A DNA stretch of 64,000 bases. It comes from Deltaproteobacteria bacterium (lineage in GTDB: Bacteria; JAMCPX01). Position 1 is the stretch's first letter. Every line of letters begins with the position of its first letter. Shown piece by piece: positions 46,952 through 56,544 of the stretch. Position numbers and translations under genes: made by a program. Where the stretch lies: assembly GCA_023382265.1 (NCBI GenBank), contig JAMCPX010000047.1, positions 25,310-89,309 on the forward strand, read 5' to 3'. A model generated the notes under the pieces. The model was not told the DNA's origin. It ran no database searches and worked only from the letters and a program-made list of their open reading frames with translations.

Positions 46952-47545
46952 TTATCCGTTTTTAACAGAATCAATACTACAACTATTCCCTGCAATTTCT
47001 ACAAGCCTTCTAACAAGCCTGTTTGTAAGTCCCCAGATGATGTGTCCCTTATACTCATAGCCGTCCGTAAGAAATTCCGTATTAAGCATTTCTATACGCT
47101 GTTCTCTATAGTTTGCCTCTTTGAGGAGGAACTCAAAAGGTACCGTAAATGCCTCCTTAACCTCTGATTTTTGCAATGTAAACTCAGGGATATCTTTAAG
47201 GATTGCTGCAAATGGTGTTACTATAAAGTTACTTATGATTGCTGAATCATCGTCAAACCTGCCGAGTATCTCAAGTTTGCTTTTGCCTATGCCTATCTCT
47301 TCCTCTGTTTCTCTTAGTGCTGCTTCAATCGGGGTTTCCCCTTTTTCTATTGTACCACCCGGGAAGGATACCTGTCCCGAATGATAACCGATGTCATCCG
47401 CTTTTTTTATGAACAAGAGATGGGTTTTATCTGAGATATTAAGAAAAATGGCAATCACCGCAGCCTTTTTCATATCCTGAGAGATGATCTCTCTGGGCGT
47501 TAAGTGTTTTAGGTTTTCTTTTAATACGTTGATGTAAGTATCCAT
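46952..47545 (-). CDS. NUDIX hydrolase (CoA pyrophosphatase-like)
   Basis: Nudix box 'GGTIEKGETPIEAALRETEEEIGI'. Confidence 0.8.
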   Translation of the reverse strand: MDTYINVLKENLKHLTPREIISQDMKKAAVIAIFLNISDKTHLLFIKKADDIGYHSGQVSFPGGTIEKGETPIEAALRETEEEIGIGKSKLEILGRFDDDSAIISNFIVTPFAAILKDIPEFTLQKSEVKEAFTVPFEFLLKEANYREQRIEMLNTEFLTDGYEYKGHIIWGLTNRLVRRLVEIAGNSCSIDSVKNG

Positions 47546-47650: not shown

Positions 47651-47968
47651 ATGGGTCGACCGAAAAAAAGACAACCCATAAAATACCCTAACTTTTATAA
47701 ACCTTACGATTTAAAGAACCACATTAAATCATTATTAACCATCATGTCCATGGTTGTAAGGGATAACAGTTTATTAAATGAATACTGGGTTGCGGGCTTA
47801 ACCATGTTTGCTGCTGCCACAGGCAGATTTGATAGCGCGTACAAGTCCCATCATTATGGGATTCGCATACAGCATATAGCTGACCGAGATCTGTATAAAG
47901 CATATAATGAAAGGCTGGATCCTGCATTGCAATGTATGGCAGTATTACAGGCAGAGAGACCCCTATAA
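47651..47968 (+). CDS. Hypothetical protein
   Basis: 105-aa ORF, no similarity recognised; may be non-coding. Confidence 0.2.
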   Translation: MGRPKKRQPIKYPNFYKPYDLKNHIKSLLTIMSMVVRDNSLLNEYWVAGLTMFAAATGRFDSAYKSHHYGIRIQHIADRDLYKAYNERLDPALQCMAVLQAERPL

Positions 47969-48071
47969 ATGTTGTGTATGTCTGTGTAAGTATATAAACT
48001 CCATCTGTTGTTATCGGACATCCAGGGCATACTGTTGATGTAAAATGTAGTCTATCTTCACGTTTGTAATA

Positions 48072-48452
48072 TTATTGATTATACCACCATGTGGATTGTG
48101 GAATATCAGCCTCTATCGCAAAAACATTCCCTTCCCCATCAGCATAGTTCTGAACAACAGGTAACAGTGACCTTAATGGAACTGGATTGTTAAATAATGC
48201 GTAAAGATCTTCACCAATGGCATCTGGTACTTGTTGTATAAGTGAGGCGCTCACCGTTGAAACAAAAAAGTTAAGGTCAGACGGCTTAATTATACGCGGC
48301 TCCTCATTATTAAGGTTACCAATTATCTTACCAAGAAAATCATCCAATGCACCTGCAAATGCTCTATTCATGCTTGAGCCTATCACTATTGTACCATCAG
48401 TTTGAGGGAAACCAATCATCATTATAAACGGACTTATATAATTATCAATCAT
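48072..48452 (-). CDS. Hypothetical protein (126 aa), translationally coupled to upstream gene
   Basis: ATGATTGA start/stop overlap with 48445..49131; no signal peptide; no recognisable domain. Confidence 0.45.
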   Translation of the reverse strand: MIDNYISPFIMMIGFPQTDGTIVIGSSMNRAFAGALDDFLGKIIGNLNNEEPRIIKPSDLNFFVSTVSASLIQQVPDAIGEDLYALFNNPVPLRSLLPVVQNYADGEGNVFAIEADIPQSTWWYNQ

Positions 48453-49131
48453 GCAATAACGGTTCTACACAATTAACTGTCTGCGTTGAATCTGTAATAT
48501 AGCACCCAAAATGGATTGTATCAGATGTTACCGGCTCTCCAACTATGAAGCCATTATGATTATTATCAAAATACGCAATAACCTTGTTAATATTATTGTC
48601 CTCTGCAATGAGGGCATTCCCCATCCCCTGCATGGACTGAAGCATACCTGTTATATCGGTCTTAACATCGGTAAAGTATTGAGCACCGGATGCGTCAGGA
48701 ATTGTGCTGAATGAGAGAAAGTCAGGACAGTTGTAAACAATGTTTCCCATTGCTCTGAATACCGCAAGAGGGGCATACTGAAGCTGGGTACTATTCAAGC
48801 CTCCTATCCAGGATAAAAGCGGAGAGAGTACGCAATTGGTATCGTAATTATATGATGAAAGTAGATCAATAATTGCCTTTAATACATAAGCGGTTGAGCT
48901 TATAGCCTTTGCCTCCGGCAAACCCCATTGCCTGCCGAGAACAAGGTTGAGAGATATTTGCGGGACAGAAGGCATTAAAAGCTTTAATACACTCATATCG
49001 GGCTGAATATGGAGGGGAAGGGTATCAAGGGTAAAGCCACAGTTGTGTTGCTCAATGAATGTGGTGTGTGTAAGAATCAGCGATATATCAGAGGTGATAC
49101 CGGTAAACTGTACTGCTACGTTGTCAGCCAT
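48445..49131 (-). CDS. Hypothetical protein (228 aa)
   Basis: No signal peptide or known motif; part of the minus-strand operon 52384->48072. Confidence 0.45.
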   Translation of the reverse strand: MADNVAVQFTGITSDISLILTHTTFIEQHNCGFTLDTLPLHIQPDMSVLKLLMPSVPQISLNLVLGRQWGLPEAKAISSTAYVLKAIIDLLSSYNYDTNCVLSPLLSWIGGLNSTQLQYAPLAVFRAMGNIVYNCPDFLSFSTIPDASGAQYFTDVKTDITGMLQSMQGMGNALIAEDNNINKVIAYFDNNHNGFIVGEPVTSDTIHFGCYITDSTQTVNCVEPLLHD

Positions 49132-49140
49132 AACACCTCT

Positions 49141-49389
49141 TTACAGATTATTAATAAAAGTGGTTGCCTGATTGTTCATAATATCCTGGCTTGCGGCAAG
49201 CACCATGCCCCAGTGTGCATCGCAACTGTTCGGATTAGCTTTTAGTGCTTGAGAGAATTGTACCAAAGCATCCTGCGGCGAGCTATTCAAAATCGCATTT
49301 TTACCGGTATTGATAAGAGGCGAGATATCGACTGATTTATGGGCATTGCCGCACTCTGCGAACAACACCATGATACCGGAAACAATCAT
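49141..49389 (-). CDS. Small TPR-like hypothetical protein
   Basis: Start set at internal Met (MIVSGIM) to avoid overlap with upstream gene; 'ALVQFSQALKANPNSCDAHWGMVLAASQ' looks like one TPR hairpin. Confidence 0.3.
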   Translation of the reverse strand: MIVSGIMVLFAECGNAHKSVDISPLINTGKNAILNSSPQDALVQFSQALKANPNSCDAHWGMVLAASQDIMNNQATTFINNL

Positions 49390-49420
49390 TTCTCTTGTCT
49401 TTATCTTTATAAAACCTCCT

Positions 49421-50605
49421 CTATGGGTATATCTTGGTGTATTCCACTGTACCGGTTGGTGACAACGACATATTATAGCCTTCTGTTGTAAATGTATATC
49501 CACCAAGGGTATAAAGATAGCCATTATACTGCACAAACTGCACACCTGCCATAGTAGCAAAAGGAGCACCTAAATTTGTTGACATACTTGGTATCCATTT
49601 ATTTAATGAGTCGTCTGTATTTATCTGAATCCTTTGAACACCATCGAAAAATGAAAGTGTGGAAGAGGAGAACTCATACATGCCATATAAAACATACAGC
49701 CAGTTATTATATGTTGCTGCCCCAATTATGGAAACAGGATTTATTGTTAATGGGGCATTTGTGTCGGTAATCCAGTCTCCTACAGAGCCATCAACTCCAA
49801 TTGCTGCATAAGATGGGGATGATAGTGGAATCAACGAAGAATAGAATGAGCCTGATGATGAAGTTGAAGGGAATAGAGCTGCCAACCCTCCACCCAATAG
49901 ATAAATCCTGTTACCTATTGCAATACTTGTTACGCCATAAGGTATTGTTATTGTAGGGGATACGGCCATCCATGGGGTAAATGGGATGGATGTATCAGAG
50001 ATCCATGAGCCTAAAGAACCATCCTGATTTATCATGCAGTGAGATGTCTTTAATAAAGCCTGCGAAGACTGTGCGGATAAACATGATATCGTATACGCAT
50101 TATTAAAATTACATAGAGGGGCAATTTCATACATCCATTTATCTGAAATAAGTAGTATAGTTGATTGTGTACAAGGTGAAATAGGCAGTGTTGAAACTGT
50201 TTGCCATACACCAAGACTGTGATCCGACTGGATATCTGTCTTTAGAATATCACCATTGGTAAAGTTTACCGCATATAGATAATTATTGTATTGTAACAGG
50301 GCTTGATAGCTACCCGTCGGTAATAATGAGGTATCGCTTATCCATTGTCCAATATCGCCATCTGATAATATTGGCGCCCTTACTGTTGTATTTTCTGAAA
50401 AACTTACTGCATACATCCAGCCATTATATTCTATTGCTCTAAAAGGAATACCTGTATCGTTTATTGGCACAGAGGATGATGCAAACTGCCACTGTCCAAG
50501 ATGACCTGGACCCGTATCAGATGTAACCTTTACACCAGATGTATATGATGTACAGCTACTGAGGAGCAGGAGTAAACATGTTAATAATTGTAAGTAAGTC
50601 TTCAT
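49421..50605 (-). CDS. Kelch-like six-bladed beta-propeller lipoprotein
   Basis: Lipobox 'LLLSSC'; six repeats of 'NxY(L/M)Y(A/V/L)..GG...D.S(L/V)G.W(I/Q)(S/T)DT'. Confidence 0.55.
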   Translation of the reverse strand: MKTYLQLLTCLLLLLSSCTSYTSGVKVTSDTGPGHLGQWQFASSSVPINDTGIPFRAIEYNGWMYAVSFSENTTVRAPILSDGDIGQWISDTSLLPTGSYQALLQYNNYLYAVNFTNGDILKTDIQSDHSLGVWQTVSTLPISPCTQSTILLISDKWMYEIAPLCNFNNAYTISCLSAQSSQALLKTSHCMINQDGSLGSWISDTSIPFTPWMAVSPTITIPYGVTSIAIGNRIYLLGGGLAALFPSTSSSGSFYSSLIPLSSPSYAAIGVDGSVGDWITDTNAPLTINPVSIIGAATYNNWLYVLYGMYEFSSSTLSFFDGVQRIQINTDDSLNKWIPSMSTNLGAPFATMAGVQFVQYNGYLYTLGGYTFTTEGYNMSLSPTGTVEYTKIYP

Positions 50606-50635
50606 AAGATTGTCCTCCTTATAATAATTATATAC

Positions 50636-52384
50636 TTATTTCACCCAAAGTTGAAGCCTGTCATATATACCAATAGCTTTTCCATGAGCATTAAACGGCA
50701 TTGGCGACCCATGGATAAGCGTTTTTATTCCAAGCCCAAGCGGAAGATTTGCATATTCCATAAGTAATGATTTTACATAATCCAGCACCTCTCCTAATTG
50801 GGGACTTGCATACCTATGGATAAAATCAATGAAATAAATAATCGTGTTGACTTCATCTCTGGTAAACACTTTGTTTGCCAGTTGCGGTGGAAGTTTTCCG
50901 TTATTTGTAAGGAGCGCTTTTACTATAGGGAGGTATTGTGTTATTAGCTCCCTTGCCTGTCCTATAAGTTGTGGATGTTCTAACATTATTTTTGTGATCT
51001 CAGGGCTGTATTCGTAATAAAGTGCTACAAGTAATTCCCCTTCATATCCTTTAGATAAAACACGATCCCTGAAGCTTCTTATTAATGGAATATTGGTTTC
51101 TAAAGAAGTTCCCCTTAGAGCTGCGGTCACAAAGCAGCAACTGTTTGAATAAGGATTAGTTCCTGTTACATTTATGGTAGTAGAGGTAAACATAGTAAAA
51201 TTCATTTCCGGACATGACTGATCACCAGGTAAATCATCATAGAGTAGTGCAACCAATAGTGGATATGAAACAGTGCATTCACTAACTGGAGCTGTTATTG
51301 GCAATGAAATACTTGTTTGATCAGAACCGCTTGGATATGGTGTTAAGGAATAGTTCCAAGAGCTATAATTGTTATAGATAGACCCATAATAGTTGTTATA
51401 TGGATATATTAGAGGGAAGACATCCGGATTAGAATAATTACCGAAATTATTAAGCCCTGCTACATGAAAAAGATAGTCAGGATTGTAAAAAGATTCTAAT
51501 CGTGGTGAGACATTTTCTATTGTAATATTAAGGTTTGTAGATTGCCCTGCTTGCAGGTTTGTTGGTTGAAGTGTAAACTGTGCGGTTGAATAAAGGGGCG
51601 CATAAGTTTCATTTGAAACAAGAAAGGGATCGTTAAAGATGTATAACAATACTTCCTTAAATGGAACTTCAAAGTAACCCACAGAAGTAGATATGCCTAA
51701 TAATCTATTTCCATTTAATAAATCTTGTACATTACTTTTTATATCATCATCTATTATTGGACAAGGACCCGCGTCATCAATAGTAGGGTTACCGGTAACT
51801 GAACAATGACTTCTGTAAACATTTACTGTTATATGTGTAAAATTTAAACCAAGTGTTGCAACCGAAAGATTTGAAGGTGGTTGAATAACAGTAGTAGTCA
51901 TATATACATCTGCTACAACACTCCCTACATAGTTAACTGATAGAGTTTCATATTGGCAATTGAGCGGATCTACATAGCGTATGTGCCCTGTTGTTTGAGT
52001 AATATTTAAGGTTAGGTGGAGGTGAATACTCTGGATAGGTGATACCCACGTCGTTATATAATTCATAGTGATAGAGGGAATATTACCATAGACCGTTATA
52101 CCATTGGAATTACCATTACACGCAGTTGATCCTGATAGTAGATTACATTCACATAGGTATGAGAAGCCAAATGATCCAGTAGTAGTAGGGAAGATAGCAT
52201 TGCTGTGTATATTTTGTAGTATCACTGAGCTTGCTCTATTTAGGACCACTTGTGGTAACTGACACTGGGAAGCAGGGTAATCAGCTTTTACATTATTGGT
52301 AATAATAAAACTTATACCCAACAAATTTATTATTAAAAACCTCTTTAATATTTTCTTAACATCCTCCTTTGTAAATTTTATCAC
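50636..52384 (-). CDS. Large secreted Asn/Tyr/Thr-rich protein with conserved C-terminal 'CCFVTAALRG...LIRSFRD' domain
   Basis: Signal peptide; ~400-aa low-complexity beta-rich region; C-terminal ~170 aa resembles the 'CFxxTAAxGS...LRxFRD' cassette seen at C-termini of some secreted proteins (recalled from memory). Confidence 0.5.
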   Translation of the reverse strand: MIKFTKEDVKKILKRFLIINLLGISFIITNNVKADYPASQCQLPQVVLNRASSVILQNIHSNAIFPTTTGSFGFSYLCECNLLSGSTACNGNSNGITVYGNIPSITMNYITTWVSPIQSIHLHLTLNITQTTGHIRYVDPLNCQYETLSVNYVGSVVADVYMTTTVIQPPSNLSVATLGLNFTHITVNVYRSHCSVTGNPTIDDAGPCPIIDDDIKSNVQDLLNGNRLLGISTSVGYFEVPFKEVLLYIFNDPFLVSNETYAPLYSTAQFTLQPTNLQAGQSTNLNITIENVSPRLESFYNPDYLFHVAGLNNFGNYSNPDVFPLIYPYNNYYGSIYNNYSSWNYSLTPYPSGSDQTSISLPITAPVSECTVSYPLLVALLYDDLPGDQSCPEMNFTMFTSTTINVTGTNPYSNSCCFVTAALRGTSLETNIPLIRSFRDRVLSKGYEGELLVALYYEYSPEITKIMLEHPQLIGQARELITQYLPIVKALLTNNGKLPPQLANKVFTRDEVNTIIYFIDFIHRYASPQLGEVLDYVKSLLMEYANLPLGLGIKTLIHGSPMPFNAHGKAIGIYDRLQLWVK

Positions 52385-52523
52385 TACTGTCCCAACGTTT
52401 AATTATCAAAACACAATAACATATTGAAGTCAATAGATAAATTGACAAAAATAATTTTTATCGATTTGAACTTGAAAATACTTTTAAGCCATACTTTTGT
52501 AGCAATACAAAAGGAGACGGCTT

Positions 52524-52930
52524 ATGAATACAGGAGCAACTGTTTTTTCTCAGCTTATGGATTTTATTCCAAGTTATAAGTTTCACAAATGTGTAGAACG
52601 GTACGGCGGCAATTACAAAGTAAAAAGTTTTTCATGTTGGGATCAATATCTATGCATGGCATTTGTCCAACTTACATTTCGGGAAAGTCTGCGGGATATT
52701 GAAACATGCCTGCGGGTAACATAGCATAAACTTTATCACATGGGAATACGAGGTAAAGTTGCGCGAAACACTTTGGCTCATGCCAATGAAACAAGAGACT
52801 GGCGTATCTATGCTGATTTTGCCAAAGTACTTATTCATACCGCAAGAGCCTTGTATGCCAATGATGATTTCGGACTGGAACTCAAACAAACAACCTATAC
52901 TCTGTGACGTTCCCCCCGAAAACCAGAGCA
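52524..52930 (+). pseudogene. IS4-family transposase remnant (N-terminal DUF4372-like + start of DDE domain) with in-frame TAG at 52722
   Basis: 'FSQLMDFIP..FHKCVERYGGNYKVKSFSCWDQYLCMAFVQLTFRESLRDIE' then, after TAG, same frame continues 'GIRGKVARNTLAHANETRDWRIY...TTYTL'; interrupted by the IS3 element at 52905. Confidence 0.7.
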
Positions 52931-52979
52931 CTTGCTCTTAGAGTCTCCAGTTAGTAAAAGATAGCAAAAGGAGGCAAAG

Positions 52980-53246
52980 ATGCAAGCAAAAAGGTATACC
53001 GAGGAACAAATAATACGTGTTCTTGAGGAAGAGCGAGCCGGGGCAAAGGTCATGGATCTGTGCCGTAAATACGGGATGAGCGATGCGACGTTTTACAACT
53101 GGAAAGCGAAATACTCCGGCATGACGGTCAGCGATCTGCGCAGACTGAAATTCCTGGAGGAAGAGAATCGCAAACTAAAGCGCATTGTAGCGGATCAGGC
53201 ATTGGATATTGCGGCACTCAAGGGAATAAACTCAAAAAACTGGTAA
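52980..53246 (+). CDS. IS3 transposase OrfA (HTH)
   Basis: '[46 protein letters not shown]' leucine-zipper/HTH typical of IS3 OrfA. Confidence 0.9.
53234..53240 (+). promoter_or_regulatory. Programmed -1 ribosomal frameshift heptamer A AAA AAC
   Basis: Located 6 nt before the orfA stop; the -1 frame reads [17 protein letters not shown] into orfB. Confidence 0.8.
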
Positions 53247-53269
53247 AGCCCAAGGTCAAGCGAGCAGCA

Positions 53270-54106
53270 GTGGATTATGTGGTAAGAGGCTTTGGGCTGA
53301 GTAAACGAAGGGCGTTACAACTGGTACATTTATGCTGGGCCAGTTATATATACCGTAGGAAAGACAAGGGGGACGATGCGTTACGCAAGCGTATGCATGA
53401 AATTGCGCAACATCGACGGAGGTTGGGTTCGCCCCGCATCTATACCCTGTTAAGAAGAGAGGGATGGAAAATGAATCATAAGAAGGTAGATCGGCTGTAT
53501 AAGGAAGAGAAGCTGTCATTGAGGCTGCGGAAACGTAAACGGCTGCCGGCACGGCAGCGGATATCCCTTACGGTTCCAAACGCACCGAATAAGTGCTGGT
53601 CCATGGATTTTGTATCAGACAGCATTGCACAGGGGCGAAGATTCCGTGTTTTAAACATCGTTGATGATTACACGAAGGAAAGTCCTGCTATGGAGGTAGA
53701 TACGTCTCTTGGAGGTGTTCGAGTAGCGCAGGTTTTAGAGAGGTTAAAGCAAACCAGAGGATTGTCTGATAGAATCAGAACTGACAATGGTCCTGAATTT
53801 ATCAGCCGTGCACTGGATGAATGGGCATATCAGAACGGGGTGAAGCTGGACTTCATAGAACCGGGCAAGCCTATGGAGAATGCTTTTATAGAAAGCTTTA
53901 ATGGGCGGTTCCGGGATGAATGCCTGAACGAGAACTGGTTTATGACGCTTCAGGAAGCCAGGGAGATCATTGAGCATTGGCGGATTGATTACAATCAGAA
54001 CCGGCCACACGGCTCCTTAGAAGGACTTACACCGGATGAATTTGCAAGAAAGCACGAAATAATGGTAAGGAATAGTCAGGAAACTCTAATTCAAGGTGCT
54101 CTATAA
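53270..54106 (+). CDS. IS3 transposase OrfB (DDE integrase core, rve)
   Basis: 'WSMDFVSD', 'IRTDNGPEF', 'E' of the DDE triad, 'RPH' C-terminal motif; expressed as an OrfAB transframe fusion. Confidence 0.9.
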
Positions 54107-54121
54107 AATGGGGGAAGGTCA

Positions 54122-54300
54122 TAGAGAACAATAGACAGCTAATCTTTTTAAGCAACAATTTTACATTACCAGCCTTGACCTTTGCTCAACTGTATAAATG
54201 TCGTTGGCAGATAGAATTGTTTTTCAAACGGATAAAACAACATCTGAGAATCAAGACTTTTTACGGAAACAGTGGCAATGCAGCCTTTAGTCTTTTTTAA
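54122..54300 (+). pseudogene. IS4-family transposase C-terminal remnant
   Basis: 'ALTFAQLYKCRWQIELFFKRIKQHLRIKTFYGNSGNAAFSLF*' (characteristic YxxRWxIExxFKxxKQ tail); ~200 aa of the DDE core between the two fragments is missing. Confidence 0.65.
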
Positions 54301-54319: not shown

Positions 54320-55891
54320 TTATTCATAGTTTGTGTAATCAAGCCAATTAAAGATGTTATCTTTTGATTCTGTCTCATTAAGGAATTCCGGGTCAATGCT
54401 GTTATTGGTTATTTGTTCATAGAGGTACGTGAACCTTGATATGTGAGAGATAAATCTTTTTTTTGCATAATTCACATTCGTGCCTGAGTTCATGATAAAA
54501 GGCCAATCACTACTCTGGACGAGTAACAGCTCTCTTAATGCCTGATTGATTGCCCTGTGTTTTACCGGAGATGCCTTTTTGATTCTTATGAGTGTCTTCA
54601 TACGGTCCTGTGCCATATGAAGATGTTTGTATATCCAATCATTCGTTCCGTTAAGCCATACCTCATGATAACCTTTATCCCCCCAGCTTGATTGAGCAGG
54701 CTGAGCGATCTGGTTTTCAGTATACTCTTTTAAATAAATGGGCGGAGAGATTGATTTAACGCGATCATTTATTGCGTGAAGTTTTCTAAAAACATGCTCG
54801 AGAAACTCGGGGCCTTCAAACCACCAGTGCCCAAACAGCTCCGCATCATAAGTGGATACTATTATAGGCTTTCTGTCCATAATGCTTGATAGATACTCAA
54901 TATGTTTCTCCCTGTTGAAAACAAAATTACCCGCATGTATCTCTGTTTTTTTAGATGCCCATTCCGGATTGTACGGCTCTTTTTGATCTGTAGGACCCGT
55001 GATCCTGTAATACTTTATTCCAAGGTTTGATCTCGAGCCGTCACTGTGCAGGTACGGCTTGATATAATCAAAATCCAGATCATATCCAACATCCCTATAA
55101 AATTCCCTGTAGTCATTATCCCCCGGATAGCCCTCTTTTGCACTCCATACCTGTTTTGCCGACTGATGATCCCTTCCAAAGAAGCATACACCCGTTTCCG
55201 CGCATATGGGTGCATAAACGCCGTACACGGGCTGAATAGACGCATTGAGCAATCCATGTGCGTCAAGGAATGTATACCCGATACCGCTTTTGGCTAAAAG
55301 GCTGTCAACCCCCTCTATATAAGCGTTCTCCGGCAGCCAGAATCCAGACGGCTTTAAACCAAACCAATGCTTGTACGTATCGACGCCAATACGAATCTGA
55401 TTATCCTTCCACGGATCGTCAATAATCAGCGGCAGGTATGCGTGTGTTGCACATGAAGCTAGTACATCAACAGCTCCTGCATCAATAAACTCCTTGAATC
55501 CTGAGACTATGTCTCCTCTATACCTTTTCTCAAATACATCCATGTAATGTTTGAATCTATCATAATACATCCTCGCGAGTTGATTAAAGTCTGGATCCTT
55601 TTGGGTACGTATAATCTCTTTTTCGCTTAGCTCTATAAGTTTTGAAAGATGATGCTTGTATCTTTTCATAAGCAGTTCATCTTTCAGCATCTCCATTAAT
55701 GTAGGGGTAAGACTAATAGTTATGTGAAATTTAATGTTATCGTTAAGCATTCGATCAAATGCATCAAGCAGGGGAAGGTATGTTTCTGTTATTGCTTCAT
55801 AAAGCCAATCTTCTTCAAGAAAATCATTATACTCAGGATGTCTTACATAAGGCAGATGTGAATGAAGCACAATGGCTAAATAACCATTCAT
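54320..55891 (-). CDS. Glycoside hydrolase family 57 protein (probable alpha-1,4-glucan branching enzyme)
   Basis: 'MNGYLAIVLHSHLPYVRHPE' GH57 N-terminal signature; 523 aa. Confidence 0.85.
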   Translation of the reverse strand: MNGYLAIVLHSHLPYVRHPEYNDFLEEDWLYEAITETYLPLLDAFDRMLNDNIKFHITISLTPTLMEMLKDELLMKRYKHHLSKLIELSEKEIIRTQKDPDFNQLARMYYDRFKHYMDVFEKRYRGDIVSGFKEFIDAGAVDVLASCATHAYLPLIIDDPWKDNQIRIGVDTYKHWFGLKPSGFWLPENAYIEGVDSLLAKSGIGYTFLDAHGLLNASIQPVYGVYAPICAETGVCFFGRDHQSAKQVWSAKEGYPGDNDYREFYRDVGYDLDFDYIKPYLHSDGSRSNLGIKYYRITGPTDQKEPYNPEWASKKTEIHAGNFVFNREKHIEYLSSIMDRKPIIVSTYDAELFGHWWFEGPEFLEHVFRKLHAINDRVKSISPPIYLKEYTENQIAQPAQSSWGDKGYHEVWLNGTNDWIYKHLHMAQDRMKTLIRIKKASPVKHRAINQALRELLLVQSSDWPFIMNSGTNVNYAKKRFISHISRFTYLYEQITNNSIDPEFLNETESKDNIFNWLDYTNYE

Positions 55892-56544
55892 CTTTTTCTT
55901 GATGTGATTTGCTCTATTTTTGCAGGGTTTGAATGTTTAAAACTATCATAAGCTTCTGCAAATGGTGTGTTCTGGCTATCAGGCAAACCGATATCCTTAT
56001 ACTTGATTGCAGAAGGCCACGCGTTTGGTGTCCTGATCGGGTTTGAAGTTGCTATAAGACTGAAGTCACCGCTGCCGTTTATATATCCGATCTCTGCTTT
56101 AAATGTCTCTCCCGGCTCCGGAACATTTACGTACCAGCTGCTTGCATCTCCAATACTTATATTTGTGTACAGTTGCCCTTTTTTATAAACCCTTAGCAGC
56201 AAATGTTTATTCGTATATTTGTGTTTATCGATTACCCAGTATGCAAAAAACCACCATGGGTCCCTTGGCATCAACACAAGTCTTGTCTCATTATCATATT
56301 CTGGCAGTTTTTCTTCATAGGTAATCTTACGTTTAGTTGCAGTGGATTGCTTACGCAAAACCTTATCGGCACTTTTAGCAGCTTTCTTTTTGAGTGTTAA
56401 AGAGATGGCCATTGATTTCCCTGATTTAACAATGGCCTTTATGATCTCATCTTTAGACATTGTCCTTATAAGGCTAACGTGTTTTTCCTTTGCAAGCTTT
56501 CTAAGCGTTATTATGGTCAGTTTTTTAAGCTCTTTTGTATTCAT
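55888..56544 (-). CDS. DUF4912-like protein (Rho-N-like N-terminus), GH57-associated
   Basis: 'LMPRDPWWFFAYW' motif; 4-bp overlap with the GH57 gene. Confidence 0.5.
   Translation of the reverse strand: MNTKELKKLTIITLRKLAKEKHVSLIRTMSKDEIIKAIVKSGKSMAISLTLKKKAAKSADKVLRKQSTATKRKITYEEKLPEYDNETRLVLMPRDPWWFFAYWVIDKHKYTNKHLLLRVYKKGQLYTNISIGDASSWYVNVPEPGETFKAEIGYINGSGDFSLIATSNPIRTPNAWPSAIKYKDIGLPDSQNTPFAEAYDSFKHSNPAKIEQITSRKR

Follow-up and report, generated by a model that had tools for sequence, protein, structure and literature searches.

The question raised by this locus is whether a row of uncharacterised open reading frames (ORFs) beside a pile of insertion sequences (IS) is imported cargo or something older. 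The ORFs lie in a 64-kb stretch of a Deltaproteobacteria bacterium genome (contig JAMCPX010000047.1; the whole stretch is referred to below as the window), between a NUDIX gene and nested IS4- and IS3-family debris. A sequence-only reading of the stretch had described them as a functional six-gene accessory operon flanked by IS. On the minus strand from 52384 to 48072 the block contains five ORFs rather than six, of 582, 394, 82, 228 and 126 amino acids (aa), which are non-overlapping apart from a few nucleotides described below; the start of the block at 47651 is set by a plus-strand ORF, which runs antisense to the end of a pseudogene. The block comprises three ancestral genes, g1, g2 and g3, one of which (g3) is in four pieces, and is very probably the remnant of a native three-gene cell-envelope cluster in decay with a recent IS insertion added. 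The ancestral order was probably g1-g2-g3, and all three ancestral products carried export signals, which shows that the module acted in the envelope. The features of the three genes, in window positions, are as follows.

50636..52357, minus strand: g1 native coding sequence, secreted CFI-box-domain protein (signal peptide, NF041770, homologues)
50636-52384, minus strand: 582-aa ORF, the g1 frame opened from a GTG
50936..51136, minus strand: CFI-box domain of g1, motif CCFVTAA ... IRSFRDRVL ... LYYEYSPE
49421..50605, minus strand: g2, Kelch-type beta-propeller lipoprotein of 394 aa (lipobox LSSC, six repeats)
47742..49410, minus strand: psi-g3, pseudogene made up of four colinear fragments, from a TPR-like lipoprotein family of ~560 aa
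49141..49389, minus strand: psi-g3 fragment a, 82 aa, with signal peptide, lipobox Cys and TPR-like start, ending at the TAA at 49141-49143
48445..49131, minus strand: psi-g3 fragment b, 228 aa, ending at a frameshift
48072..48452, minus strand: psi-g3 fragment c, 126 aa, ending at the TAA at 48072-48074
47742..48071, minus strand: psi-g3 fragment d, 109-codon tail, open and in frame with fragment c

The 82-, 228- and 126-aa ORFs and the unannotated 109-codon tail tile a single lipoprotein gene of about 556 codons. A word-indexed search with the 228-aa ORF returned only its self-match. An exhaustive phmmer search with the same ORF gave five full-length relatives of 559–617 aa (E 7e-31 to 2e-4), to residues ~100–320 of which the ORF aligned, and an xGC lipobox in all five identified them as lipoproteins. 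When protein P0020 was compared with the window using tblastn, aa 12–317 matched 49386..48466, reading across the TAA at 49141-49143, and aa 331–518 matched 48410..47823 in another frame, across the TAA at 48072-48074; the two segments gave a combined E of 4e-71 with one frame switch. In alignment A1 the four fragments were colinear with the family from the signal peptide through to the C-terminal ...P-x-W. A 48-aa ORF in a relative (L004/L005) spans the boundary between the 82- and 228-aa ORFs in one frame, with a Tyr at the TAA of the window, and fragments c and d form part of a 236-aa ORF in the near-identical strain L001.

The lesions of psi-g3 are an in-frame TAA stop at 49141-49143, a frameshift somewhere within 48410-48466 and, in the window only, a change from TGG to TAA at 48072-48074 (TGG in L001) at the conserved Trp of a PWYY motif. 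The frameshift produces the overlap 'ATGATTGA' at 48445-48452, from which a translationally coupled cytoplasmic pair had been proposed. The overlap is real, but the 228- and 126-aa ORFs match consecutive parts of single proteins and not separate full-length homologues; because both match one protein family, the overlap is a by-product of the frameshift inside a lipoprotein pseudogene. The small residue (G/A/S) expected at position -1 of a lipobox is also missing from psi-g3 in the window, where the -1 codon (49354..49356, minus strand) is GAG for Glu (LFAEC), as it is in L001; the codon is GGG for Gly (LFAGC) in a third strain, L025, and all homologues have Gly. Loss of an ATG start at 49410 (ATG to ATA) was considered and dropped as unproven, as ATA is present in all three strains, though homology to P0021 begins there. 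Two of the point lesions are coding-strand G to A changes, namely GGG to GAG in the lipobox (49355) and the double change TGG to TAA (48072-48073), which are too few events for calling a mutational bias.

Psi-g3 is a diverged paralogue (33–38% identity) of a clade-specific, unnamed TPR-like lipoprotein family that is restricted to a few metagenome-assembled genomes (MAGs). Intact genes of the family were found at other loci of related genomes, where the usual order is lepA, lepB, a 437–458-aa Ser-rich lipoprotein and the g3-family gene:

L016, 456-2399 and 6497-9737: intact g3-family locus, together with the CFI-box-CTERM fusion protein described below
L010, 8599-11707: intact g3-family locus

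In L016 a 1334-aa ORF follows the g3-family gene. The TPR-like fold of the family is a low-identity (8–22%), generic fold match to envelope lipoproteins such as LpoP, BamD and YbgF/CpoB; the C-terminal ~180 residues of the g3 family fall outside the model. The family also has a dockerin-like DxNxDG loop that is below threshold. The TPR-like element noticed in the sequence-only reading therefore exists, but the peptide to which it was assigned is a fragment of one lipoprotein gene.

Other strains were found by an exact-protein look-up, which gave two contigs (L001 and L002), plus L025; all of the sequences are metagenome assemblies. L002 (Logan SRR10278331) matches the window at 100% identity and breaks off within the IS. 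L001 (ENA ERZ27237162, 182 kb) has flanks that are 99.2–99.8% identical to those of the window and a g1 that is 98.9% identical, and its genes run in the order seen in the window (NUDIX, block, GH57), without the IS; window positions 52380-54280 stand in place of 64 bp of L001 directly upstream of g1. L025 (ENA ERZ27237444) represents a third strain at 95–98% identity. The g3 gene is a pseudogene in all three strains, with an additional 1.23-kb internal deletion (49268 to 48034) in L025, and g1 has been hit independently in each. The window has lost the g1 start, as described below. The g1 of L001 carries a 2-bp deletion at 51622-3 that leaves 247 + 327 aa and a 3-bp deletion within the signal peptide; a third deletion, of 51 bp (50650-50700), takes out 17 strongly conserved C-terminal residues. 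In L025 the 3' end of the GH57 gene is joined to sequence 25 nt upstream of g2, and g1 is wholly absent. With psi-g3 and g1 both degenerate, the proposal of a functional operon does not hold, while the view that these genes are uncharacterised, envelope-directed and dispensable agrees with their variation between strains. Presence/absence polymorphism among relatives had been proposed as a check; the block does vary between strains, but the variation is not tied to the IS.

The L025 deletion of g1 starts 6–7 nt from the junction of the IS4 end in the window (window 54281 / L025 330-345 / L001 6744-6751), and the 64-bp replacement in the window begins at the same spot. This spot downstream of the GH57 gene may be fragile or recombination-prone. 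An IS-mediated origin of the L025 deletion was considered and dropped, the boundary being 6–7 nt from the IS junction but with no IS remaining.

The product of g1 matched the NCBIfam profile NF041770 (CFI-box-CTERM) with 52.5 bits against a cut-off of 40 (E 3e-14), over aa 417–483 and profile positions 1–67 of 69. A conserved helical extension of ~100 aa directly follows the CFI-box. The signal peptide, read from L001 and from the homologue in L021, is MKILKRF...NNVKA, then DY. The N-terminal ~380 residues are Cys- and Asn-rich, and Pfam, NCBIfam and PDB searches detected no relatives of them; they are probably beta-rich, going by the secondary structure of a poor single-sequence AlphaFold2 model (predicted local distance difference test, pLDDT, 32) that was otherwise unusable. 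PDB searches by sequence and by profile found no match to g1, to its C-terminal module or to the family, a word-indexed homology search with g1 found only itself, and a GTDB scan with the g1 alignment gave no match. At 582 aa for the longest form of its frame, g1 is not the giant secreted protein that had been described.

The native start of g1 lies at 52355..52357 (minus strand), where the window has AAG; L001 has ATG there after a perfect AAGGAGG ribosome-binding site 5 nt upstream. The start of an intact homologue in L021, a JGI metagenome contig, falls within the region aligned with this position. That homologue is 550 aa long, with a signal peptide MNKLKRFL... and 47.9 bits to NF041770, and its signal peptide confirms the native N-terminus of g1. 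The 582-aa ORF opens with the GTG at 52382..52384 (minus strand), which falls in the final 5 nt of the IS4-family end. Since it sits in the IS-derived end and homology to L001 stops at 52379, this codon is not an original part of g1. The PGAP annotation calls a g1 of 529 aa starting at Val54, which drops the signal peptide. Expression of g1 in the window is doubtful.

As in other CFI-box-CTERM proteins, g1 has a Cys-led motif and an N-terminal signal peptide, and it passes the curated cut-off. Unlike the C-terminal placement implied by the family name, 99 residues follow the g1 domain, with no hydrophobic helix among them. A canonical member in L016 (94 bits) ends ...LLAIIFLMRRNRYA, with a hydrophobic helix and basic tail, whereas g1 is without such an anchor. 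No described function, solved structure or literature for the CFI-box family was found in the resources searched.

The middle gene, g2, is intact at 394 aa in all three strains (window, L001 and L025). Its lipobox, MKTYLQLLTCLLLLLSSC, has an LSSC that agrees with the pattern [LVI][ASTVI][GAS]C, and six DGSLGxW...YxxGG repeats were identified in the protein. Comparison of g2 and its relatives with Kelch proteins using hhalign gave a probability of 99.9% (E 9e-36, 270 columns), the best PDB sequence matches of g2 were Kelch proteins and the homologues P0006–P0015 carry Pfam Kelch domains. Single-sequence Pfam matches of g2 were below gathering thresholds (Kelch_6 14.9 against 25.3 bits, Kelch_1 13.5 against 20.1 bits, E 0.03–0.05). 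The assignment of g2 as a Kelch-type propeller is thus one made by profile comparison and not by Pfam threshold, and together with the lipobox it bears out the Kelch-like propeller lipoprotein of the sequence-only reading. The repeats are shared with Kelch_1/Kelch_6 proteins, often auto-annotated as NanM-like mutarotases; g2 is lipid-anchored and no enzymatic role is claimed for it. In L025, where g1 is deleted, the ribosome-binding site of g2 (350-362; window 50617) reads AAGTAGG versus AAGGAGG.

The substitutions between strains, like the lesions, point to g2 being under constraint and to g1 and psi-g3 being free of it. In the comparison of the window with L001, g2 showed 2 nonsynonymous (N) to 4 synonymous (S) changes (pN/pS 0.15), and between the window and L025 9N:7S (pN/pS 0.40). 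In g1 the comparison with L001 gave 11N:1S, plus indels, against 13N:33S for the flanking genes together (Fisher p = 1e-4).

The block is bordered on one side by the IS pile and on the other by the NUDIX gene, and the remaining features of the locus are listed below.

52380..54280, plus strand: IS4-family remnant, with a DUF4372 N-terminus at 52524-52724 (E 1.5e-28) and a DDE_Tnp_1 C-terminus at 54175-54300 (E 1.8e-8)
52900..54126 (approximate), plus strand: IS3-family element inside the IS4 remnant, with orfA at 52980-53246 and orfB at 53270-54106
54320-56544, minus strand: GH57 glycoside hydrolase (PF03065 + BE_C), border gene beyond the IS pile
46952-47545: NUDIX gene, border of the block opposite the IS pile
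47651..47968, plus strand: 105-aa ORF, antisense to the psi-g3 tail

The IS4 transposase is incomplete: all that remains is its DUF4372 N-terminus plus the final ~40 aa of DDE_Tnp_1, roughly the middle half of the gene having been lost. The nested element belongs to the IS3 family by its HTH_Tnp_1 (E 2.5e-21), rve (E 5e-21) and rve_3 (E 2e-30) domains. It has imperfect terminal inverted repeats of ~45 nt (52900-52948 and 54079-54126) and a GC content of 0.47, and its blastn matches are annotated as IS3 family transposase. No target-site duplication was seen for either the IS4 or the IS3 element, which suggests that IS insertion was coupled with deletion. A composite transposon requires IS on both sides, whereas here the pile is one-sided, with no target duplication and no second IS copy within the 64-kb window. 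The IS4/IS3 debris and the NUDIX gene of the sequence-only reading are thus real and the debris adjoins the block, but the block is not flanked by IS. The pile was also taken as the signature of acquired cargo; it is absent from the 99.2–99.8% identical L001, which has the block at the same NUDIX/GH57 locus. Because this near-identical, IS-free strain has the block, the block predates the IS and the pile is not evidence of import. The nested pile is a recent, one-sided, strain-specific insertion that damaged the 5' end of g1 and did not carry the block.

The composition of the block gives the same answer. Its GC content (0.36–0.42) lies within the window background of 0.40 ± 0.035 and its codon-usage z-scores (-0.8 to +0.8) are also inside the background, the IS3 element being the sole clear outlier at -2.1. 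GC at third codon positions is somewhat low only in g1 (0.26) and g2 (0.30) compared with 0.38 ± 0.05. Foreign composition, for which a comparison with the flanks had been proposed as a check, was ruled out on these values. None of the marks of a recent genomic island was found: composition is that of the background, presence is not tied to a mobile element, no tRNA was detected in the window and no integrase at the block border. Recent horizontal acquisition is unsupported, because the composition and codon usage of the block match the host. The block is accessory in the sense that it is dispensable and variably placed among relatives. No toxin/immunity, transporter, defence or phage family was found in it using Pfam, NCBIfam, PADLOC and PHROG, and the suggestion of a contact-dependent system is not supported.

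In its intact form the module would have comprised a Sec-secreted g1 with a CFI-box helical module, the propeller lipoprotein g2 and a ~560-aa TPR-like lipoprotein from g3. In the decaying cluster that we favour, g1 and g3 would no longer be needed, or their loss would be favoured, and both would be eroding, while g2 would keep a function independent of the other two. The locus resembles other cases of IS-associated inactivation and reductive decay, with an IS4 element upstream of g1 and 64 bp removed, a nested IS3 and point, frameshift and deletion lesions that differ between strains. Several observations weigh against this reading. The psi-g3 fragments retain long open frames, and an RBS-like AGAGG precedes the ATG of fragment b, such that there may be residual expression. 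Apart from its start, the g1 frame in the window is undamaged, and translation could begin at the GTG supplied by the IS. The window-specific lesions come from assemblies that are possibly from the same sample (L002 being 100% identical), the polymorphism counts are small, and although the 11N:1S of g1 fits neutrality (binomial p = 0.2) it is also compatible with diversifying selection. Continued function of the cluster, with g1 expressed from the GTG and an outward promoter in the IS and the g3 pieces acting as split subunits, would draw on these same open frames, on the GTG being in frame 9 codons upstream with the signal peptide kept, and on fragment b having its RBS-like sequence and ATG and overlapping fragment c by ATGA. 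Such continued function is improbable: fragments b, c and d have no export signal although their parent lipoprotein was exported, the Glu at -1 spoils the lipobox, the GTG has only a weak Shine-Dalgarno-like GGGA and is skipped by PGAP, and L025 manages without most of g3 and all of g1.

It is very unlikely that the lesions are assembly or sequencing artefacts and the genes intact in the cells. All of the sequences are metagenome assemblies and the window-specific lesions occur only in assemblies that possibly share reads, but the frameshift and the TAA stop at 49141 recur in separate samples processed by separate assemblers (ENA ERZ27237162 and Logan SRR10278331), and a double substitution and 51-bp and kilobase deletions with clean junctions are atypical of Illumina consensus error. 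Hardly any credence is left for a functional six-gene operon that came in by horizontal transfer with IS and specifies a new kind of surface or contact-dependent system. IS debris does adjoin the block, its proteins are without named function and g1-g2 is found at other loci in relatives; against this, only five ORFs are on the minus strand, three of which form one broken gene together with the tail, a near-identical strain has the block without the one-sided IS, the composition is native, and no toxin, transporter or defence family and no tRNA or integrase is present. A stronger contender, though still unlikely, is adaptive loss of g1 (and g3), in which pressure from phages, predators or the environment would have repeatedly disabled or diversified a surface-exposed protein; the three-gene anatomy fits this reading as well. 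Three independent inactivating routes in three strains with flanks differing by up to ~5%, the 11N:1S ratio of g1 and the truncation of g1 in the relative L003 as well point this way. The ratio is not significantly off neutral expectation, however, relaxed selection predicts the same pattern and no receptor role is known. The locus represents ordinary gene decay and not a new system, and what looked like an island carried by IS proves to be decaying native DNA. It offers a compact example of strain-level reductive evolution, in which the same two genes were lost by three routes in three strains and the middle gene was kept.

The annotation of the locus can be revised. The pseudogene pieces are called as separate hypothetical proteins, NCBI M1381_08735 being the 228-aa piece, and the antisense 105-aa ORF is called in the strain of the window but the 236-aa ORF in L001. 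No homologues or domains were found for the 105-aa ORF, and it is most likely spurious. The five entries listed as 'hypothetical proteins' in the public record of this MAG (e.g. M1381_08735, M1381_08750) reduce to two genes and one pseudogene. A Pfam scan gave nothing above threshold for any block protein, PADLOC and PHROGs scans of the block proteins and an Rfam scan of the window gave no match, and a promoter/terminator scan performed no better than on shuffled sequence. A DUF4912 gene precedes the GH57 gene with a 4-nt overlap; in L025 g2 is directly downstream of this DUF4912/GH57 pair and may now share its transcript.

The one lead that goes beyond ordinary decay comes from the CFI-box module, which is uncharacterised and repeatedly found in association with beta-propellers; this lead concerns the relatives more than the window. 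Relatives of g2 at 29–32% identity are present in three other MAGs with differing neighbourhoods, and homologues of g1 at 43–49% identity were found in L003, L006/L007 and L021. In L006/L007 and L003 the g1 homologue (43–47% identity) is directly upstream of the g2 homologue; it is 5'-truncated to the last ~305 codons in L003, and in L006/L007 it is at a contig edge and has no recognisable signal peptide. In L004/L005 the g2 homologue is followed by a g3-like fragment cut by a Tn5-type transposase remnant. A different propeller lipoprotein, of NHL/SGL type, follows the g1 homologue of L021. The canonical CFI-box-CTERM protein of L016 is a 647-aa fusion with a YncE-like propeller, FN3 and a C-terminal hydrophobic helix, and lies ~5.6 kb upstream of the g3-family gene at the same locus. 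The member that survives across lineages is g2.

The propeller lipoprotein would, on this evidence, bind or tether the secreted CFI-box protein at the envelope, in a surface or periplasmic protein-docking role. Docking of g1 by g2 is possible but doubtful; the idea arises because CFI-box modules recur beside propeller lipoproteins (window, L003, L006/L007 and L021; four or five lineages), and because one such module in L016 forms a fusion with a propeller, and it draws on gene neighbourhood only, the g1 model having a pLDDT of 32. A bolder proposal would make g1/g2 an undescribed envelope device with the CFI-box as a portable docking unit that fixes secreted proteins to propeller partners at the cell surface, and the repeated, independent loss of g1 a result of selection against a target exposed there, for instance a phage receptor, and not of drift; we regard this as a long shot.

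Three JGI metagenome contigs also encode larger secreted proteins whose catalytic domains contain a helical module of ~165 aa with homology to the g1 CFI-box and its extension (alignment A7):

L023, 477-2564: module divides Pfam Peptidase_C1 into profile 1-101 and the remainder
L022, 1004-4975: module splits Peptidase_C25
L024, 827-5311: module splits a NosD-like beta-helix

These copies scored 22–26 bits against NF041770, below threshold, and their placement inside other domains suggests that the helical module may be a portable insertion domain.

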